Assembly: GCA_033764315.1 (NCBI GenBank)
Contig: JANRJA010000228.1
Location: 1-61,512 of the forward strand
Length of the DNA: 61,512 bases
From: Oculatellaceae cyanobacterium bins.114
GTDB taxonomy: Bacteria; Cyanobacteriota; Cyanobacteriia; Elainellales; Elainellaceae
Reading direction: 5' to 3'
In this document: positions 3,084 through 43,384 of the stretch, in pieces
Layout: each line of letters opens with the position of its first letter
Numbering within the stretch: the stretch's first letter is position 1
The notes under the pieces: model-generated
The model's database searches: none
What the model was told of the DNA's origin: nothing
What the model saw: the letters and a program-made list of their open reading frames with translations, nothing else
Translations under genes and position numbers: made by a program

Positions 3084-4052
3084 ATGGCAAAGTCTCGCAA
3101 ATTAGAAGAACTCACCACCGCCTTCAATCAGATTCGTCATGACCCCACATCAGAAATGGCGATCGCCACGCTACATCAGATTCTCACAAGCAAATATGGC
3201 ATCATTGTGGCTCAAGCGGCTCACCTGATCGGTGAGTTTGAGATGCATCGGTTTGTTCCTGATCTGGTGGCTGCCTTTAGTCGGTTTATGCTCAATGCCA
3301 AGGATAGCGATCCGGGGTGTCGAGCCAAACAGGCGATCGCTGAAACCCTATATCGGCTCAATTACAGTGATGAAGCTTTATTTTTGCAAGGCATTCATCA
3401 TGTGCAACTGGAACCTGTCTGGGGTGGACAGGTTGATACAGCTCCCCGGTTGCGGGGCACCTGCGCCTTGGGCTTAGTGAGAATGAATTACTCGCAAGTC
3501 ATGGTTGAACTGGCAGATTTGTTGGCAGACTCAGACCCAGAAGCCCGCATTGGAGCCGCACGAGCGATCGCCTATAGCGGCAACGACCAGGGCATTCCAC
3601 TCCTGCGATTGCGAGTTAAAGTGGGCGACACCACTCCGGTTTTGTCAGAGTGTTTGATCGCGTTGCTCACCCTGGCACCCGTTCCGACACTGCCTCTGAT
3701 TCAAACCTTGCTCTATCACTACACTCAGCAAGACTCTCCAGAGACCCTTGAGAAGGCAGAAGCCACGGCTCTAGCCTTGGCAGAGTCACGCCGACCTGAA
3801 GCCTTGGACATCTTGCGAGAGTGGTGGCAACAGGTTCGTAACCGCGATGTGCGGCGAACAGGATTGTTGGCGATCGCCACTTTGCGCCACGATAGTGCTC
3901 TAGAATTTTTGTGCACTCTGGTAGAACAAGGCACCGCCAGTGATGCTAGAGATGCCATCAAAGCATTAAGTATCTATCAACACGACACCTCTCTCTGGGA
4001 GCGGGTGCGGCAATTGGCGGATCAACGCGAAGATAGTGTGAAAGCTGATTAG
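3084..4052 (+). CDS. HEAT-repeat (PBS-lyase-like) protein
   Basis: Helical repeats such as LLADSDPEARIGAARAIA; 322 aa. Confidence 0.75.
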   Translation: MAKSRKLEELTTAFNQIRHDPTSEMAIATLHQILTSKYGIIVAQAAHLIGEFEMHRFVPDLVAAFSRFMLNAKDSDPGCRAKQAIAETLYRLNYSDEALFLQGIHHVQLEPVWGGQVDTAPRLRGTCALGLVRMNYSQVMVELADLLADSDPEARIGAARAIAYSGNDQGIPLLRLRVKVGDTTPVLSECLIALLTLAPVPTLPLIQTLLYHYTQQDSPETLEKAEATALALAESRRPEALDILREWWQQVRNRDVRRTGLLAIATLRHDSALEFLCTLVEQGTASDARDAIKALSIYQHDTSLWERVRQLADQREDSVKAD

Positions 4053-36920: not shown

Positions 36921-39269
36921 ATGCAGAAGCTGGTAGAGGTGCTGATCAAGTTTACGCCATCGGGATTCGGCATTGGGGTCACGGCTCATGCCTTGTTGCA
37001 GCACCAATGGACTCAAGCCGGGATCATGGCGTTTTTCACAGGCATTACATCGCTGTGGATCAAGTTTAGCAGCGAGTTTATGAAAGAGGCAGAAGCCGAA
37101 GCCGCCAAACTGGGAGGTGGATTTGCCAAATGGGTGTTTGCGCTGTTGAATAAAGCGATCGCGGCTCTGCAAACTCGTGCTGTTCAACTTTGGCAAGACA
37201 TCACCTCTGACTTTGAGGGCAAATATTTTAAGCGACTGTCTTATATCTGCCGTGACTATGAAACGCAGGGGTTAGACCGGGGTCGAGGGCTAAAGCTGCA
37301 ACAGGTATATGTTTCAGTCCGGTTGTCTCAACAAGATCTGGCGGCGATTTCGCCCAACTTGCTGAAGCAACTCAAAGGTGAGGAAGGGTTAAATCGCAGC
37401 TTTGAGATTGGAGACATGCTGGCATTAATGGCGCGTCAACCTGAAGACTTTCGGCGATTAGCCATTTTGGGCGCACCCGGATCAGGGAAAACGACCTTAA
37501 TGCGTTACATCACTCTGAAGTACGTCACACGCCAACAGCGTCAACTCCATCCCAAAGCACCTCAACTCATTCCCGTGCTGCTCTATCTGCGTGAGATGTA
37601 TCCGCAGATTTTGCAAACGCCCCAGCCCTCTCTGGCAGATCTGTTAACCCAATGGGTGCAGGGTTTACAGACCGAAAACCCCTTAAAGCCACCATCTAAT
37701 TGGTTCAACAAACAACTCCAGCAGGGACGCTGTTTAGTGTTGATCGATGGCTTAGACGAAGTGCCCGACGAACACCAGCGTCAGCAGGTGAGCCAATGGG
37801 TCGATCGCCAAATGGCAAATTATTTGGAAACCCCACTTATTTTGACCTCCCGCAAAGCAGGCTATGAAAGTGCACAACTGCAAGAAAATGTGAGGGTTCT
37901 GGAGGTGCAACCCTTTACCTCAAAGCAGATTGATACGTTTGTGAAGAACTGGTATTTGCAAACCGAGGTAAACAGCCGTGGTGATGAGCTAGATGACGGA
38001 GTGCGAGACGCAGCAACGCAACAAGCGAATCACCTGTTGCAGGAAATTAAACGTCGCCCTGCTCTAAGGGAATTGGCATCCAATCCACTGCTGCTGACCA
38101 TGATTGCCACGGTGCATCAACGCGGCAGTAGTCTACCGTTAAAGCGGGTAGACCTCTACAAAATGATCTGTGAAGTGCTATTAGAAAAGCGATCGCAGGC
38201 AAAGATTGCTCGTCGCATTTCAGGGATAAATAACTCCCCTTTACCCGAAAGACTTGCACTCACCGCCAGCCAAAAGCGGGTGATTTTGCAACCGCTGGCA
38301 CTGGAGCTAACCCGTCGAGAAGTGCTGAAGTTTACGCTGAATGATGTATCGGCGTTGTTGCAGGAAAAATTGAATAGCCTGCCCGGAAAGCCGCTTTCCC
38401 CAGCCGAGTTCTTAAAACAACTGCGCGAAGTCGATGCGCTGATTGCCAAAGAACAGGAAGACCTCTACGAATTTGCCCATCGTAGTTTTCAGGAATATCT
38501 AGCATCCGCAGAAATCAAAGAAACTCATCAGGAAGTGTTGTTGCTTGACGCTCTGCAAACCTCCGATAAGTTGAAATGGTGGCAAGAAACCATGCTGTTT
38601 TATGCCGCTCAAGCCGACGCTTCCAATCTGATCGCAGCCATCTTGCAGCAACCCACCTTTGAAACAATGCAGCTTGTCTGTACCTTGTTGCAGGAGGGAT
38701 TAACCATTCGGCAGGAAGTACAGGAAGCATTACTAGCTAAGTTACAGGACGTGCTGCAACCGCTTGACCCAGACACCCTCAAACTGGTCACGCAAAAACA
38801 ACTGGAGCCGCGCTATTACAAACTGGGCTATTACTTGCAACAGCAACAGTGGCGAGAGGCAGACCAGGAAACCTGGCTCGTCATGATTGAAGTAGGCGAT
38901 CGCACCTACAAACGCTATCTTGACCTAGACGATATCCAAAACTTTCCCTGCGACCACCTGCGGATTATCGATCGCCTCTGGGTCGCCTACAGCAAAACCC
39001 CCGATCACCCCAACGGCAAATGGGGCTTTAGTGTGCAAAAGACCATCTGGCAAGACTGTGGTAGCCCAATGGACTACAATGACGAGTGGGAAAAGTTTGG
39101 CGATCGTGTCGGTTGGCGCAAGGACGGGGTTTGGGTGATCTACAACGACCTCACATTTGACCTCGAAAAACCTTTAGAGGGAAAATTTCCGGTGATGATG
39201 GGGTATTGGGTGGGTTGGTTCTCTTCTCTCGCGCAGAGACTTGTAGAGTCTAGCACAAGCCAGCTCTAG
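36921..39269 (+). CDS. NACHT (STAND) NTPase with C-terminal GUN4-like domain
   Basis: N-terminal hydrophobic helices; Walker A GAPGSGKT; Walker B LIDGLDE; NPLLL; FAHRSFQEYL; GUN4 motifs WREADQET, FPC..L..IDRLW, GFSVQK.IW. Confidence 0.92.
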   Translation: MQKLVEVLIKFTPSGFGIGVTAHALLQHQWTQAGIMAFFTGITSLWIKFSSEFMKEAEAEAAKLGGGFAKWVFALLNKAIAALQTRAVQLWQDITSDFEGKYFKRLSYICRDYETQGLDRGRGLKLQQVYVSVRLSQQDLAAISPNLLKQLKGEEGLNRSFEIGDMLALMARQPEDFRRLAILGAPGSGKTTLMRYITLKYVTRQQRQLHPKAPQLIPVLLYLREMYPQILQTPQPSLADLLTQWVQGLQTENPLKPPSNWFNKQLQQGRCLVLIDGLDEVPDEHQRQQVSQWVDRQMANYLETPLILTSRKAGYESAQLQENVRVLEVQPFTSKQIDTFVKNWYLQTEVNSRGDELDDGVRDAATQQANHLLQEIKRRPALRELASNPLLLTMIATVHQRGSSLPLKRVDLYKMICEVLLEKRSQAKIARRISGINNSPLPERLALTASQKRVILQPLALELTRREVLKFTLNDVSALLQEKLNSLPGKPLSPAEFLKQLREVDALIAKEQEDLYEFAHRSFQEYLASAEIKETHQEVLLLDALQTSDKLKWWQETMLFYAAQADASNLIAAILQQPTFETMQLVCTLLQEGLTIRQEVQEALLAKLQDVLQPLDPDTLKLVTQKQLEPRYYKLGYYLQQQQWREADQETWLVMIEVGDRTYKRYLDLDDIQNFPCDHLRIIDRLWVAYSKTPDHPNGKWGFSVQKTIWQDCGSPMDYNDEWEKFGDRVGWRKDGVWVIYNDLTFDLEKPLEGKFPVMMGYWVGWFSSLAQRLVESSTSQL

Positions 39270-39392: not shown

Positions 39393-40159
39393 TCAAGGGA
39401 TTGCAAACCTCAGTCCAGCTATGTTCGGATCAAAGCAATTTGCCAGCACAAACTTCTCTGCAACCTGACGAATTTCTTGAGCCGGGGCATTCCACTCATG
39501 CCAAAGCGACTGTTGTCCTGGACTGGTCTTCTTCTTGAGTTGGCTCTTTACTTTAATCTGTGCTAGCAGTTTCTTCCCCAATAATTTTTCTTCTCTGGCT
39601 TGGGTTGGGGTTTATACTTTTTGCAAAATTTGCGATACGCCGCTGCACAAATCTCCAGAGTTGCCCCCAACGCCAAAAACGCTGGGTGCCATTGAGTAAT
39701 GCCATCATCGGTTAACCGATCATAGCTACCATAATTGCTGTAATCATAAAACCAGCCCTGCTGCATGTTGGCGGCTTTGGGGTTGGCGTGAATATACCGC
39801 AAAGTGTTCAAGGCTCTGAGTTTATCGCTGATCGGAAACCCAGTGCTGTGATATCGTTTTTCCCAAAAATGCCCTGTCCGATTCATCATCCGGTTAAAGC
39901 ACATTGCCGTATACCAATTCAACCAGTGCATAATATCTGGCAGATCTTCTGGCTGGGCAGGTTCCAGTAAGTAATGCACATGGTTGCTCATGATGCACAC
40001 GGCATAAAGCTTAAAGCCATATTTTTCCTGACATTTCTGAATTGCATAAAGCAATACCTCGCGGCATTCATCTCGAATTAAGCGAAATTCTCGATTGTTG
40101 CAGCGCAGGGTGATGTGATAGCAATATCCAGGTTTGAGTTCACGTTTTTGTCGAGGCAT
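39393..40159 (-). pseudogene. RAYT-like (Y1 HUH) tyrosine transposase with a 1-bp frameshift near 39575
   Basis: YHITLRCNN, MSNHVH (HUH), GHFWEKRY, YIHANP. The reading frame continues as KLLAQIK... in ORF 39393-39581. Confidence 0.8.
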
Positions 40160-40225
40160 AGGACTTGCAGGTACAAAAATTTTCAACAAATGCCGTGCCC
40201 TTACACCCGATAAACACAAATTGAG

Positions 40226-40659: not shown

Positions 40660-41034
40660 TCATTCCTCAGGCTCTGCCTGGGAACGTATACCATTTCTAG
40701 AAATTTGGGCTAAACACCAATATCCTCGTAAGGGCGTTTCGCGAAACGCCCCTACCGCCGATCTGGGACTGCGATCGCTTACGGTTAAGAACCTCAACAC
40801 AACATTTGGGAACTCAAACACAATATTCAAGTACTCCAACACGACTTTTGGAAACCTCAATACGATGTTGAGGTACTTCAACACAATATTCAAGTACTTC
40901 AACACGATATTCAAGTACTCAAACTCAATATTCAAGTACTCAAACACAACTTTTAGGAACCCAAACACAATATTCAAGTACTTCAACACAACTTTTAGGA
41001 ACCCAAACACGATATTCAAGTACTCCAATAACAT
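40660..41034 (-). CDS. Possible heptad-repeat hydrophobic protein encoded by the array
   Basis: Open frame (L/F)(K/E/R/G)(Y/F)(L/P)(N/K)(I/V)V with mostly conservative substitutions; runs into a REP, so it may be spurious. Confidence 0.3.
   Translation of the reverse strand: MLLEYLNIVFGFLKVVLKYLNIVFGFLKVVFEYLNIEFEYLNIVLKYLNIVLKYLNIVLRFPKVVLEYLNIVFEFPNVVLRFLTVSDRSPRSAVGAFRETPLRGYWCLAQISRNGIRSQAEPEE
40693..40763. repeat. GTAG-type REP-like element, family D
   Basis: GTAAGGGCGTTTCGCGAAACGCCCCTAC palindrome; copies at 17355, 45908 and 61046. Confidence 0.8.
40796..41026. repeat. Degenerate tandem array, 11 x 21 bp (consensus AACACAATATTCAAGTACTYM)
   Basis: Units in exact 21-bp register from 40796; two unit types interspersed; HIP1 sites flank it at 40771 and 41063. 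Confidence 0.95.
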
Positions 41035-41208
41035 GAACAACACAATCGCTTTACAAAGTTTGGCGATCGCCTCAGTACAATCCAGCAAATTGTTTAATTT
41101 TGATAAGAGGTTATCTTAATTTTTACGAAATTTTGCCCAAGGAGATGAGCAGAGGCAACCGTTAGAGTACAAGCATAAATCCCAGAAATTTTTTCAGGAG
41201 ATGCATCT

Positions 41209-41631
41209 GTGGCACGACTTAAACGCAATTCCGCTGTATTAGATAAAGCCCTGCTCCGAATGGCAGGAATGCGATCCATTCATGAAACGCTAGAGTTTGG
41301 AAACGGACTCAGTTTGGTGGAGTATGATACCCACATTCAAGCTCTTCAAACCCAATTATTGAGCTACAACACCATGCTCTCTACCCTGGATGAGATGGCG
41401 GGTCGTCTTGGGTTAATGGAACAAGAGTTGAGAAGTTATTCTGAAAAAATGTTGATGAGTGTGGCGACTCGTTATGGCAAAGACAGCTTGCAGTATATGC
41501 AGGCTGGAGGCAAAGCCCGGAAGCGTCTGACGCGATCGACATCTAGCTTGGCTGCATCCCCCGCAATGACTCCTACCGTAACAACCAGCACAACAACGAA
41601 TGGCAATGGGGCATCTGTAGCGGTGAATTAG
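41209..41631 (+). CDS. Small basic helical hypothetical protein (YGKDS..Y..AGG motif)
   Basis: AGGAG 8 nt before GTG; basic N-terminus, coiled-coil core, RYGKDSLQYMQAGGKARKR. Confidence 0.85.
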   Translation: MARLKRNSAVLDKALLRMAGMRSIHETLEFGNGLSLVEYDTHIQALQTQLLSYNTMLSTLDEMAGRLGLMEQELRSYSEKMLMSVATRYGKDSLQYMQAGGKARKRLTRSTSSLAASPAMTPTVTTSTTTNGNGASVAVN

Positions 41632-41838: not shown

Positions 41839-42005
41839 TAACGTCAGTTCGGTTTAAGAGCCTAGCGAATAAATTCGCAGCTATCAGAGCGAAGTTCGCC
41901 TTCGCGAACTACGGAGAATCAAGGGTTGAGTGAACCGACGTAGGTCGGTTTCGCTCCTGTAGTTGCGGTTTCAACCGCCAAAATCCTTATCCCGAATTCA
42001 CGTTA
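41839..42005. mobile_element. MITE with imperfect TIRs containing a family C core
   Basis: TAACGTCAGTTCGGTTTAAG ... CTTATCCCGAATTCACGTTA; internal hairpins. Confidence 0.7.
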
Positions 42006-42127: not shown

Positions 42128-43384
42128 ATGGGTACGAACCTCAAATATCGCATTGGCGGCTACCAACCTGGCACTCGCCCCGATCATGCTAAATCTCATC
42201 AAGCGGGTCGGTTTGAGAAGCAACAATTGCCACATCGGGTTGATCTGCGAAAATTTATGACCGATGTAGAAGAGCAGGTTGGCAATAGTTGTGTCGCCAA
42301 TGCCTTTGTGGGAGCCTATGAATATTTGGCTAAGCGCGAACTTGGTGAAGCGGGAGATGTCAGTCGTTTGTTTTTGTATTACAACGCTCGGGCGCGACAT
42401 AACAGCCAGAATGAAGATAGCGGCACCATGATGTATTGCGCGATCGAGAGTTTGATGGAACATGGGGCTTGCTGCGAAGATTTGTGGCTCAATGATGAAT
42501 CAATGATTTTTAATGAGCCTGACGCATCCGCTTATGAGAATGCAGCCAATTTCACAATTACTGAAGCTGAGGTTATTGAAACTGATTTAGATTTATGGCG
42601 ACACACGTTAGCAGAAGGTCATCCCATCGCCTTTGCCCTCAATCTATTTGAATCCTTCAACACAGCGACTGAAAATCGAGGTCGTATTTCACTCCCCAAA
42701 AAATCTGAGAATGTACGAGAAACCCATGCGTGGCACGCCATGCTTTGCGTGGGATATTCTGACAAAGACCGAATGTTTATCGTGAGAAATTCCTGGGGAC
42801 CAGAATGGGGCGATCGCGGCTATTGCTACATTCCCTATGACTACGTCATGCACCCAGACTATAACGGGCATGACTCCTGGATTATCAAATCGGTTAATGA
42901 TCTAGATTTCACCTCTGAGGTTTGGGAAGACGATGAATCTTCCTTTTCGGATGAAAATTCCTTACTCCTATATGACTTCTATATCACCACAGAAGATCCT
43001 GAAGGATTTGCCGAAGCATTGGACGCTCTGTGTCTAGAGTATGTCGAGAGCGAAGAAGACTACTACTTTGACTATGACTACGAAGAAACCGACGAAGGCA
43101 CAACTCACCTCAATATTCTCAACTTTGATCTGACGATAGAAGACTCTACTGAGTTTTTAGAGAACTTAGACGCGCTTTGTCAAGAATATGCCGTTGACGA
43201 AGATTATGACTATACGTTAGATGGAGAAATCAACGAAGAGGACTCTGAAGACGAAGAAGAGGAAGAAGAGTATGACGAAGAAGAGTTAGAGATTGAAGAT
43301 AGCGACGAAGAAGACTTTGAAGAAGAGGAATATGACGAAGAAAGCTCTGAAGATGATGAAGAATATGATGAAGATGACGAATAG
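42128..43384 (+). CDS. Papain-like C1 cysteine peptidase with acidic C-terminal region
   Basis: Q...SCVANA (Cys), HAMLCVGY (His), RNSWG (Asn); D/E-rich tail. Confidence 0.9.
   Translation: MGTNLKYRIGGYQPGTRPDHAKSHQAGRFEKQQLPHRVDLRKFMTDVEEQVGNSCVANAFVGAYEYLAKRELGEAGDVSRLFLYYNARARHNSQNEDSGTMMYCAIESLMEHGACCEDLWLNDESMIFNEPDASAYENAANFTITEAEVIETDLDLWRHTLAEGHPIAFALNLFESFNTATENRGRISLPKKSENVRETHAWHAMLCVGYSDKDRMFIVRNSWGPEWGDRGYCYIPYDYVMHPDYNGHDSWIIKSVNDLDFTSEVWEDDESSFSDENSLLLYDFYITTEDPEGFAEALDALCLEYVESEEDYYFDYDYEETDEGTTHLNILNFDLTIEDSTEFLENLDALCQEYAVDEDYDYTLDGEINEEDSEDEEEEEEYDEEELEIEDSDEEDFEEEEYDEESSEDDEEYDEDDE

Follow-up and report, generated by a model that had tools for sequence, protein, structure and literature searches.

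A conserved pairing of 21-bp tandem arrays with genes for a small unannotated protein in filamentous cyanobacteria

Results

The stretch of DNA analysed here, referred to as the window, comprises 61,512 nt (positions 1 to 61,512, forward strand) of contig JANRJA010000228.1 from the genome assembly GCA_033764315.1 of Oculatellaceae cyanobacterium bins.114. It contains a non-coding tandem array of 21-bp units and, directly downstream, the gene for a protein of 140 aa (Table 1). Together they represent a conserved, unannotated pair, which recurs many times per genome in filamentous cyanobacteria. In a first-pass annotation, made from the letters of the window alone, the arrangement had been proposed to be an undescribed array-plus-protein module in a defence-like island. 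The module itself is supported by the recurrent linkage of gene and array described below, while two parts of the proposal, a heptad peptide encoded by the array and a general defence context, had to be given up.

Table 1 Features at the window locus, and related genes and arrays at other loci
Feature	Position	Strand	Basis
Tandem array, 11 x 21 bp, consensus TACTCCAACACAATATTCAAG, two interleaved unit types, non-coding	40791..41021	+	register, TRF, orthologue arrays
Decayed 12th unit (ACTCCAAT...), 3' array edge	41022..41042	+	register listing
Gene for the 140-aa partner protein, GTG start, 187 nt past the last unit	41209..41631	+	ORF, homologues, AlphaFold2
HIP1 octamer GCGATCGC, 12 nt 5' of the first unit	40771..40778	.	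octamer scan
Promoter-like P1: TTACAA (41051-41056), 19-bp spacer with HIP1 palindrome GGCGATCGCC, TACAAT (41076-41081)	41051..41081	+	alignment of 20 diverse loci
Conserved block ATTTTTACGAAATTTTGCCCAAGGAG (family consensus TTTTTnCnnATTnTTnCTCAnnGA)	41119..41144	+	alignment of 20 loci
TAGAGT, conserved -10-like hexamer (putative role), ~40 nt before the start codon	41163..41168	+	alignment, consensus GG.TA.AGT (TAnAGT)
Ribosome-binding site CAGGAG	41195..41200	+	AGGAG conserved 8-9 nt before the start
Terminator-like hairpin and T-run (weak), 125 nt past the stop codon	41756..41786	+	consensus scan; 2 found vs 1.9 expected
Family-2 genes, window genome	C24:4938-5384, C206:39580-40020, C187:29133-29570, C50:1576-2004, C196:5344-5775, C213:132-464, C79:5123-5554		
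Orphan arrays	C40:5377-5592, C172:74237-74353, C170:9763-9929, C49:344-710		units match C155, C225, C212 modules

The units of the array follow each other head to tail. In a 21-base register laid from position 40791, each of them is exactly 21 bp long, and not a single insertion or deletion is found. Six units belong to the AATATTCAAGT type, four to the ACTTTTAGGA/ACATTTGGGA type, and one is intermediate. Because the types are interleaved, Tandem Repeats Finder (TRF) detected super-periods of 42 and 105 in addition to the period of 21 (40812-41025, 10.2 copies). No other periods were reported, so that a 7-nt sub-period is absent. The exact register, the two interleaved unit types, the YGKDS..Y..AGG motif of the protein and a distance of about 180 nt between array and gene had all been noticed in the first-pass annotation, and all of them could be confirmed, with a measured gap of 187 nt. 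It was also right in rejecting a CRISPR array. There are no spacers, let alone unique ones, between the window units, no Rfam family matches within 40791-41021, and no cas domains were detected among the neighbouring open reading frames (ORFs) scanned. The array is present only once in the draft assembly of 6.6 Mb. Searches of this genome for dispersed sites of the 21-mers yielded 3-6 matches at 3-4 mismatches, compared to 0-5 for shuffled patterns, and thus none beyond chance.

The array had also been described as flanked by HIP1. The octamers are indeed present, at 40771 and 41063, but this flanking is mostly background: the window contains 99 copies, about one per 620 bp, and adjacency to the array is therefore weak evidence. 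Still, HIP1 followed by a GGTTAAG-like sequence recurs on the 5' side of the array in all 12 Nostocales loci that were aligned, and 4 of 20 diverse orthologous loci have a HIP1 within the promoter-like spacer. Between a UPF0175 antitoxin gene and the array, a perfect 20-bp palindrome is found (GGGCGTTTCGCGAAACGCCC, 40727-40752).

For the region between array and gene, 20 diverse orthologous loci were aligned. A pair of promoter-like hexamers, P1 in the window, is conserved and begins about 30 bp past the end of the array. The hexamers are 19 bp apart in every aligned orthologue (41051-41081 in the window, L031:3842-3872), a distance typical of promoters that need DNA untwisting. The spacer at this place is centred on the HIP1 palindrome in the window as well as in L024, L053, and L068. 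In paralogous loci, blocks of the TTCTCTCAGG type resemble the conserved block at 41119-41144, and TATAGAGT and TAGATT are the equivalents of the TAGAGT hexamer. A sigma-70 scan of paralogue spacers gave a high score in only 22 of 91 cases, at scattered positions. No terminator-like site was detected between array (41021) and gene (41209) in a consensus scan of the window.

The structure of the 140-aa protein was modelled with AlphaFold2 from 57 sequences. The mean predicted local distance difference test (pLDDT) score is 77.6; values range from 82 to 97 over residues 1-100 and exceed 90 over residues 11-100 with the exception of one block. The model starts with a basic N-terminal arm (MARLKR), followed by a helix (residues 9-24), a small beta hairpin, a helix of 54 residues (36-89) with an unbroken a/d spacing of hydrophobic residues, a short helix, and a disordered basic tail. 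Among 86 diverse members of the family, M.R.KR.S, R17, the LDLG.GL hairpin, YN, E71, SE, and YGKDS.EY..AGG followed by a basic stretch are conserved, and the middle of the long helix is variable. Pfam, NCBIfam, PHROGs, PADLOC, and a PDB sequence profile gave nothing specific for the protein, and the ESM Atlas contained unnamed clusters only. Rfam likewise offered no description, and none of the module was found in the literature as far as abstracts and titles go, which bears out the assignment as undescribed. One metagenomic protein of 262 aa, P0188, joins a Toprim-like N-terminal domain to residues 38-143 of the family. It could be a real fusion or an artefact of gene calling.

To place the window locus among its relatives, a first search was performed with the 140-aa protein, yielding 175 relatives at E ≤ 0.001 with 60-72% identity, of which the named ones were all cyanobacterial. 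Eighty loci from species-representative genomes and the window locus were combined to a set of 81 orthologous loci, the flanks of which were scanned with TRF. An array with period 21 is located upstream of the gene in 78 of them. Among the remaining three, L005 and L049 have less than 400 nt of upstream sequence, and L030 shows only a weak array-like stretch. The 67 complete arrays contain a median of 10.4 copies (interquartile range 9.9-11.8), and the distance from array to start codon is 170-215 nt in 65 of the 78 loci. At 11 of the 78 loci the contig begins within the array. These arrays therefore break assemblies, in many cases about 300 bp before the gene.

Compared to 70 orthologue consensus units, the consensus unit of the window is identical in 12-18 of 21 positions (median 15); unrelated arrays, even when rotated for the best fit, give a median of 9 and never exceed 12. 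This similarity extends from Leptolyngbya-like to Nostoc lineages, but the flanks are not conserved: upstream of the arrays, no alignment between families is obtained, and the spacer is conserved only in the promoter-like hexamers, the TTTTTnCnnATTnTTnCTCAnnGA block, the TAnAGT hexamer, and the ribosome-binding site. The unit sequence is thus under purifying selection within the orthologous lineage. Two modules of one genome can hold distinct unit types, as in L054/L067 and L035/L066. Across the 81 loci, no conserved neighbour gene was detected outside the genus Nostoc. That the protein family often neighbours such arrays, which had been put forward in the first-pass annotation, is thus true.

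A profile of the orthologues detected 761 cluster representatives in a library of 1.84 billion proteins, 448 of them at E ≤ 1e-10. Members of this superfamily, family 1 in the following, are present in 23 of 401 sampled cyanobacterial genomes and usually in many copies, five in the window genome and at least ten per genome in several Nostoc-like genomes. Stops inside 20-odd matches indicate occasional pseudogenes. For the analysis of paralogues, 93 loci from family-bearing genomes and one plasmid record were used, with the window locus and one duplicate excluded. An upstream array with a TRF period that is a multiple of 21 was found in 78 of the 93 loci (77 of 92 if one place counted twice is considered) and an array of any kind in 85. 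As a control, the downstream sides of the identical loci were searched, revealing a multiple of 21 in two and any array in nine of 93. All five family-1 copies of the window genome are preceded by a 21n array. The check proposed in the first-pass annotation, a tandem repeat search in the flanks of homologues, has therefore turned out in its favour, with recurrent arrays of period 21 and divergent sequence.

The best-scoring periods were 21 (23 loci), 42 (15), 63 (15), and 84 (16). A few paralogue arrays with periods of 20, 40, 41, 62, 82, or 83 bp are built from 20- and 21-bp units; the array of L163, for example, consists of 11 units of 20 bp with 96% matches. Units of 20-21 bp and composites of 41, 62, 82, and 83 bp fit a helical phase, not codons. 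Among 52 non-redundant paralogue arrays with a median length of about 205 bp, neither a shared k-mer nor a universal core motif was detected. Linkage of gene and array is thus near-obligatory, and the period is locked irrespective of the sequence, which is private to each paralogue. On a Kovacikia megaplasmid, the gene of a member with 39% identity is preceded, at a distance of 308 nt, by a 42-bp x 4 array. Single family-1 members are labelled as coming from a Bacteroidota, an Acidobacteriota, and a Gloeobacter-related genome. For soil-metagenome relatives of the Acidobacteriota (Pyrinomonadaceae)-labelled member, upstream 21n TRF rows were obtained at 17 of 25 loci at a minimum score of 30 and without a control, and about half of these 17 arrays of 21 or 42 bp have fewer than three copies; they are a hint at arrays in this group. 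At two soil loci, a DUF1508 (YegP-like) gene directly follows the family-1 gene (L184:1699-2019, L185:2907-3215).

The arrays are non-coding. A unit of 21 nt corresponds to seven codons, and one frame per strand is open in the window, as had been stated before (ORFs 40865-41119 on the plus and 40660-41088 on the minus strand); the other four frames hold 1-13 stops. Frame +0 reads Y-L/F-N-T-T/I-L/F-K with an a/d-like hydrophobic spacing, and the column information follows a period of three over unit positions 7-18. All this would suit a variable heptad peptide, one of the options offered in the first-pass annotation. Among 64 orthologous arrays, however, the two best frames are open in just 55 and 54, respectively, and both are broken in six. 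A conserved start codon for an array frame is missing in the orthologous arrays, and stop codons abut both array borders in Nostoc. In paralogues, an array frame cannot be kept because units of 20, 41, or 62 bp occur. Furthermore, of the 52 non-redundant arrays, 12 have no open sense frame and 13 no open antisense frame, and in 8 none of the six frames is open. With frames broken and units not restricted to triplets, the period-3 conservation of columns is therefore no sign of translation, and the peptide is refuted.

The window genome contains 206 tandem arrays at a TRF score of at least 100. The period is a multiple of 21 in 47 of them, and six of these 47 adjoin a family-1 gene. Arrays with period 21 (19) rival the known heptamer class (22) in number, and some 21-bp arrays look by eye like three degenerate heptamers (C84:14236-14415, C228:12583-12762). 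Beside 21n arrays a second unannotated small protein was found, designated family 2, with a length of 149-167 aa and seven matches in the window genome (Table 1). Its consensus reads ...LT.EERR.L.KMGDKSRAFV...GSEAYAAA..Y. Homology between the two families is not detectable (hhalign probability 0.5%), and no known fold or family was matched by family 2. The model predicts a helical protein with a 52-residue helix and a basic tail. Family 2 is present in 26 of the 401 genomes, and 21 of these are among the 23 genomes harbouring family 1. Its arrays are located upstream of the gene at 8 and downstream at 17 of 29 loci, and at several loci the array begins 8-22 nt past the stop codon. Terminators between family-2 genes and downstream arrays were predicted in 3 of 17 cases, which is uninformative. 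One unit type is shared by both families and is oriented oppositely relative to the family-1 and the family-2 gene.

The arrays of three family-1 modules have relatives at unlinked loci, C225 in C170, C155 in C40 and C172, and C212 in C49. Homology is confined to the array and ends at its edges, and within 1.5 kb of these orphan arrays no family gene or remnant was found. The recurrence of one array type at unlinked loci, where nothing but the array is homologous, implies a trans-acting reader. The window array itself is without an orphan copy in its own genome.

No other conserved partner gene stands beside the module. A conserved operon partner or island context was detected neither in the 81 orthologous loci nor for the window copy and four other copies of the genome. 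Since paralogues occupy unrelated neighbourhoods, the suggested defence-like island is not a general feature. Partition NTPase domains (ParA, ParM, TubZ) are absent from the neighbours of the window copy and the four other genome copies. Genes for IS200-like Y1 transposases lie beside 21-bp arrays twice, in the window (39563-40219, minus strand; PF01797, E 1.5e-19) and in C172, about 334 nt past the orphan array. This may be chance.

Discussion

We favour a reading, to which a probability of about 0.45 is assigned, in which the array is a phased scaffold with a repeat of two helical turns, bound by the adjacent protein and most likely so as duplex DNA. Array and gene would form one self-contained module, the unit length being fixed at two turns of B-DNA (20-21 bp) and the small protein being the cognate, sequence-specific binder of its array. 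The conserved basic N-terminal arm and the basic C-terminal tail would grip the nucleic acid. The heptad-patterned helix of 54 residues, with about 8 nm roughly as long as one 21-bp unit, may serve as a ruler and as an oligomerisation surface. One oligomer is envisaged per unit. Since units are two helical turns apart, all oligomers would be on the same face of the duplex, where side-by-side polymerisation could give rise to a nucleoprotein filament covering about 230 bp. This filament would stop about 30 bp upstream of the promoter-like region and might thereby feed back on transcription of the gene itself. The same protein may also occupy the array-only copies elsewhere in the genome. Consistent with this reading are the predicted structures: basic ends and a long helix are seen in the family-1 model, and the unrelated family 2 is also modelled with a long helix and a basic tail. 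Dyad symmetry of the units is weak but significant: 39 of 52 arrays score above the column-shuffled control (Wilcoxon p 0.0004).

A number of observations weigh against a protein-coated duplex. The N-terminal arm, YN, SE, and YGKDS.EY..AGG are identical in paralogues with wholly different arrays; because these superfamily-conserved residues stay the same, specificity would have to reside in the variable middle of the long helix, which would be unusual. A DNA-binding fold is not recognisable: Foldseek gave no match to the model at E ≤ 0.001, VIA-align found generic helical hairpins only (Z ≤ 6.8), and no DNA-binding family of Pfam was assigned. Dyad symmetry is absent in many arrays, and covariation of inner half-sites was not detected in the orthologous family. 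P1 was not called by a consensus promoter scan allowing 16-18 bp; its 19-bp spacing is outside this usual range. The Nostocales arrays are preceded by a conserved stretch of about 70 nt that contains a TGnTAnnnT-like, extended -10-like element. Arrays keep one orientation towards the family-1 gene, and in 39 of 52 the sense strand is rich in pyrimidines (p 0.0004), both pointing to a strand-specific constraint. Finally, array words are abundant in four of four RNA libraries examined, a lichen metatranscriptome among them, and contigs from RNA libraries of two organisms and two studies span the last two units, the promoter-like element, and the gene.

The last four of these points, from the conserved block to the RNA libraries, at the same time favour a module acting at the RNA level, which we consider unlikely, yet the foremost of the alternatives. 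RNA-library contigs that join array and gene speak for it. The array would be transcribed, either within a long leader of the gene or, starting from a promoter of its own upstream of the array, as an independent repeat RNA, and the protein would bind or cut this RNA unit by unit, in parallel to the repeat-RNA antitoxins of type III toxin-antitoxin systems, to a protein-sponge RNA, or to an autoregulatory ribonucleoprotein. The contigs in question, X2 record 17 and X9 record 31, both begin at position 3769, within the last two units of L031, and a third one, X1 record 8, has its first base upstream of the -10 box. They are assembled sequences without strand or transcript ends, and DNA carry-over is possible. 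In the lichen metatranscriptome the array is covered and the gene is not, and the stretch preceding the L031 array is without cover in X1; neither was used as evidence. Several family-2 arrays begin so shortly past the stop codon that they must be transcribed at least partly. Private repeats per paralogue, spread in many copies, and occasional pseudogenes are typical of toxin-antitoxin modules, and repeats directly upstream of a protein gene match the ToxIN layout (PMC8860590).

An RNA, however, gives no reason why units of unrelated sequence should all be held at 20-21 nt. It has no match in Rfam, and a hairpin with a covarying stem can be ruled out for the orthologous family, in which pair counts show only the invariant outer and central positions to be complementary, position 18 being random against a fixed C6. 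Between array and gene a promoter-like element is located and no terminator-like site, at least in the window. The protein is predicted to be all-helical and matches neither ToxN/AbiQ-like nor other nuclease families in Pfam, NCBIfam, and PADLOC (0 hits in each). The position of family-2 arrays on either side of the gene argues for a site at the DNA level and against a fixed transcript element; the shared unit type in opposite orientations and the orphan arrays standing without a gene also speak against an RNA. If it nevertheless applied, a new ribonucleoprotein or toxin-antitoxin-like module with an unprecedented 21-nt unit would have been found.

Still less probable is a structural role of the DNA independent of the protein, in which minisatellites of two turns gather beside small genes without being recognised by their products. 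They could be intrinsically curved or host-factor-bound upstream elements, or products of slippage sized by a nucleoid protein. The many 21n arrays of the window genome that are not adjacent to family 1, the existence of orphan arrays, the lack of a common k-mer, and the association of two unrelated protein families with 21n arrays would all be accounted for. Such elements would not explain a linkage as tight and directional as that observed (78 of 81 orthologues; 78 upstream compared to 2 downstream of 93 paralogues), the maintenance of the unit from Leptolyngbya-like to Nostoc lineages without that of the flanks, the private sequence of each paralogue, or the unlinked same-type arrays with their implied reader. 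Finally, a heptad-repeat, that is coiled-coil, peptide partnering the 140-aa protein is already refuted as a general property by the broken frames and non-triplet units, and its probability is next to nil.

In layout, the module resembles partition centromeres and iteron arrays. Partition centromeres are located beside the gene of their binding protein, as in parC/ParR of R1, parC/ParR of pSK41 with 20-bp tandem repeats, or sopC/SopB of F with 12 repeats of 43 bp, and are coated cooperatively to form a higher-order nucleoprotein structure. Here, too, about ten phased tandem repeats directly adjoin the gene of a small protein that has a basic N-terminus; they may be located upstream or downstream of it, and each system has private repeat sequences. 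Unlike partition centromeres, the modules lack a nearby NTPase gene of the ParM, ParA, or TubZ type, are chromosomal with 5 to more than 10 per genome, and keep their unit at 20-21 bp over hundreds of unrelated arrays. The protein also matches no ribbon-helix-helix or helix-turn-helix family, although a missing fold match does not exclude such a domain. Iterons of theta-replicating plasmids and phages (R6K, P1, F, RK2, pPS10) are direct repeats of 17-22 bp. The module units are in this size range, about two helical turns apart, and next to the gene of a presumed binder, and handcuffing, the pairing of identical iteron arrays, may be an analogy for modules and their orphan arrays. In contrast to iterons, there is no Rep-type winged-helix initiator, the partner being a predicted helical hairpin protein of 120-160 aa, and many copies are present per chromosome. 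With no NTPase, no Rep protein, and many chromosomal copies, the module belongs to neither class.

Type III toxin-antitoxin systems are represented by ToxIN, CptIN, and TenpIN (PMC8860590, PMC12283969, PMC13682666). Common to them and the module are a tandem array immediately upstream of a small protein gene, a stand-alone, multi-copy, and patchy occurrence, and a cognate pairing of repeat and protein, which is putative in the case of the module. Type III antitoxin repeats measure about 34-45 nt, and the toxins are beta-rich endoribonucleases. The module with its 20-21-nt unit and its predicted all-helical protein devoid of a nuclease-type match does not belong to these systems. A promoter-like element, and no terminator-like site, is located between array and gene in the window, and a possible promoter precedes the Nostocales arrays. 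Intergenic tandem arrays in filamentous cyanobacteria are also known as short tandemly repeated repetitive (STRR) heptamers and TAACTGA/GGGGAYT-type heptamer arrays (PMC4679880, PMC4692102). The window unit differs from these by the missing 7-nt sub-period, and the module arrays by being tied to a specific protein family. As another case, NsiR1 is a tandem array of small RNAs upstream of hetF with units of about 60 nt, each with its own promoter. It illustrates that tandem arrays preceding a gene can themselves consist of RNA genes.

If the arrays are indeed bound by their neighbours as phased duplex DNA, hundreds of unannotated small proteins, corresponding to the 761 family-1 cluster representatives, would gain a testable partner in the adjacent array. 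A rationale would be provided for a class of period-locked bacterial minisatellites, and many orthogonal pairs of protein and repeat would become available for studying the polyploid chromosomes of multicellular cyanobacteria and for synthetic biology. A more speculative extension of the same idea, which appears rather unlikely at present, could be termed addressable chromatin. Orthogonal ruler proteins with a helix of about 8 nm and a 20-21-bp register would polymerise, each on a satellite array of its own, and bridge arrays of identical sequence at unlinked loci. The large polyploid chromosomes found in filamentous cyanobacteria would then be equipped with dozens of landmarks, insulators, or pairing sites encoded in sequence, with extensions to some soil Bacteroidota and Acidobacteriota. 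Families 1 and 2, which occur together in 21 of 23 genomes, would read one class of arrays, either as alternatives or in cooperation.

Other observations in the window

In a protein of 782 aa encoded at 36921-39269 (plus strand), a NACHT NTPase is joined to a GUN4-like porphyrin-binding domain at the C-terminus. Downstream of the 140-aa protein gene, a sub-threshold match to the Rfam family CRISPR-DR28 (24 nt, 27.5 bits compared to a threshold of 35) is located at 41888-41911 within ...GCAGCTATCAGAGCGAAGTTCGCC. A similar string was found upstream of the array of L024, and the element is probably a dispersed short repeat. It is followed at 42128-43384 (plus strand) by the gene of a papain-family (C1) peptidase, the C-terminal tail of which, about 60 residues of almost pure Glu/Asp, is encoded by degenerate GAA/GAT repeats (TRF 43247-43381).

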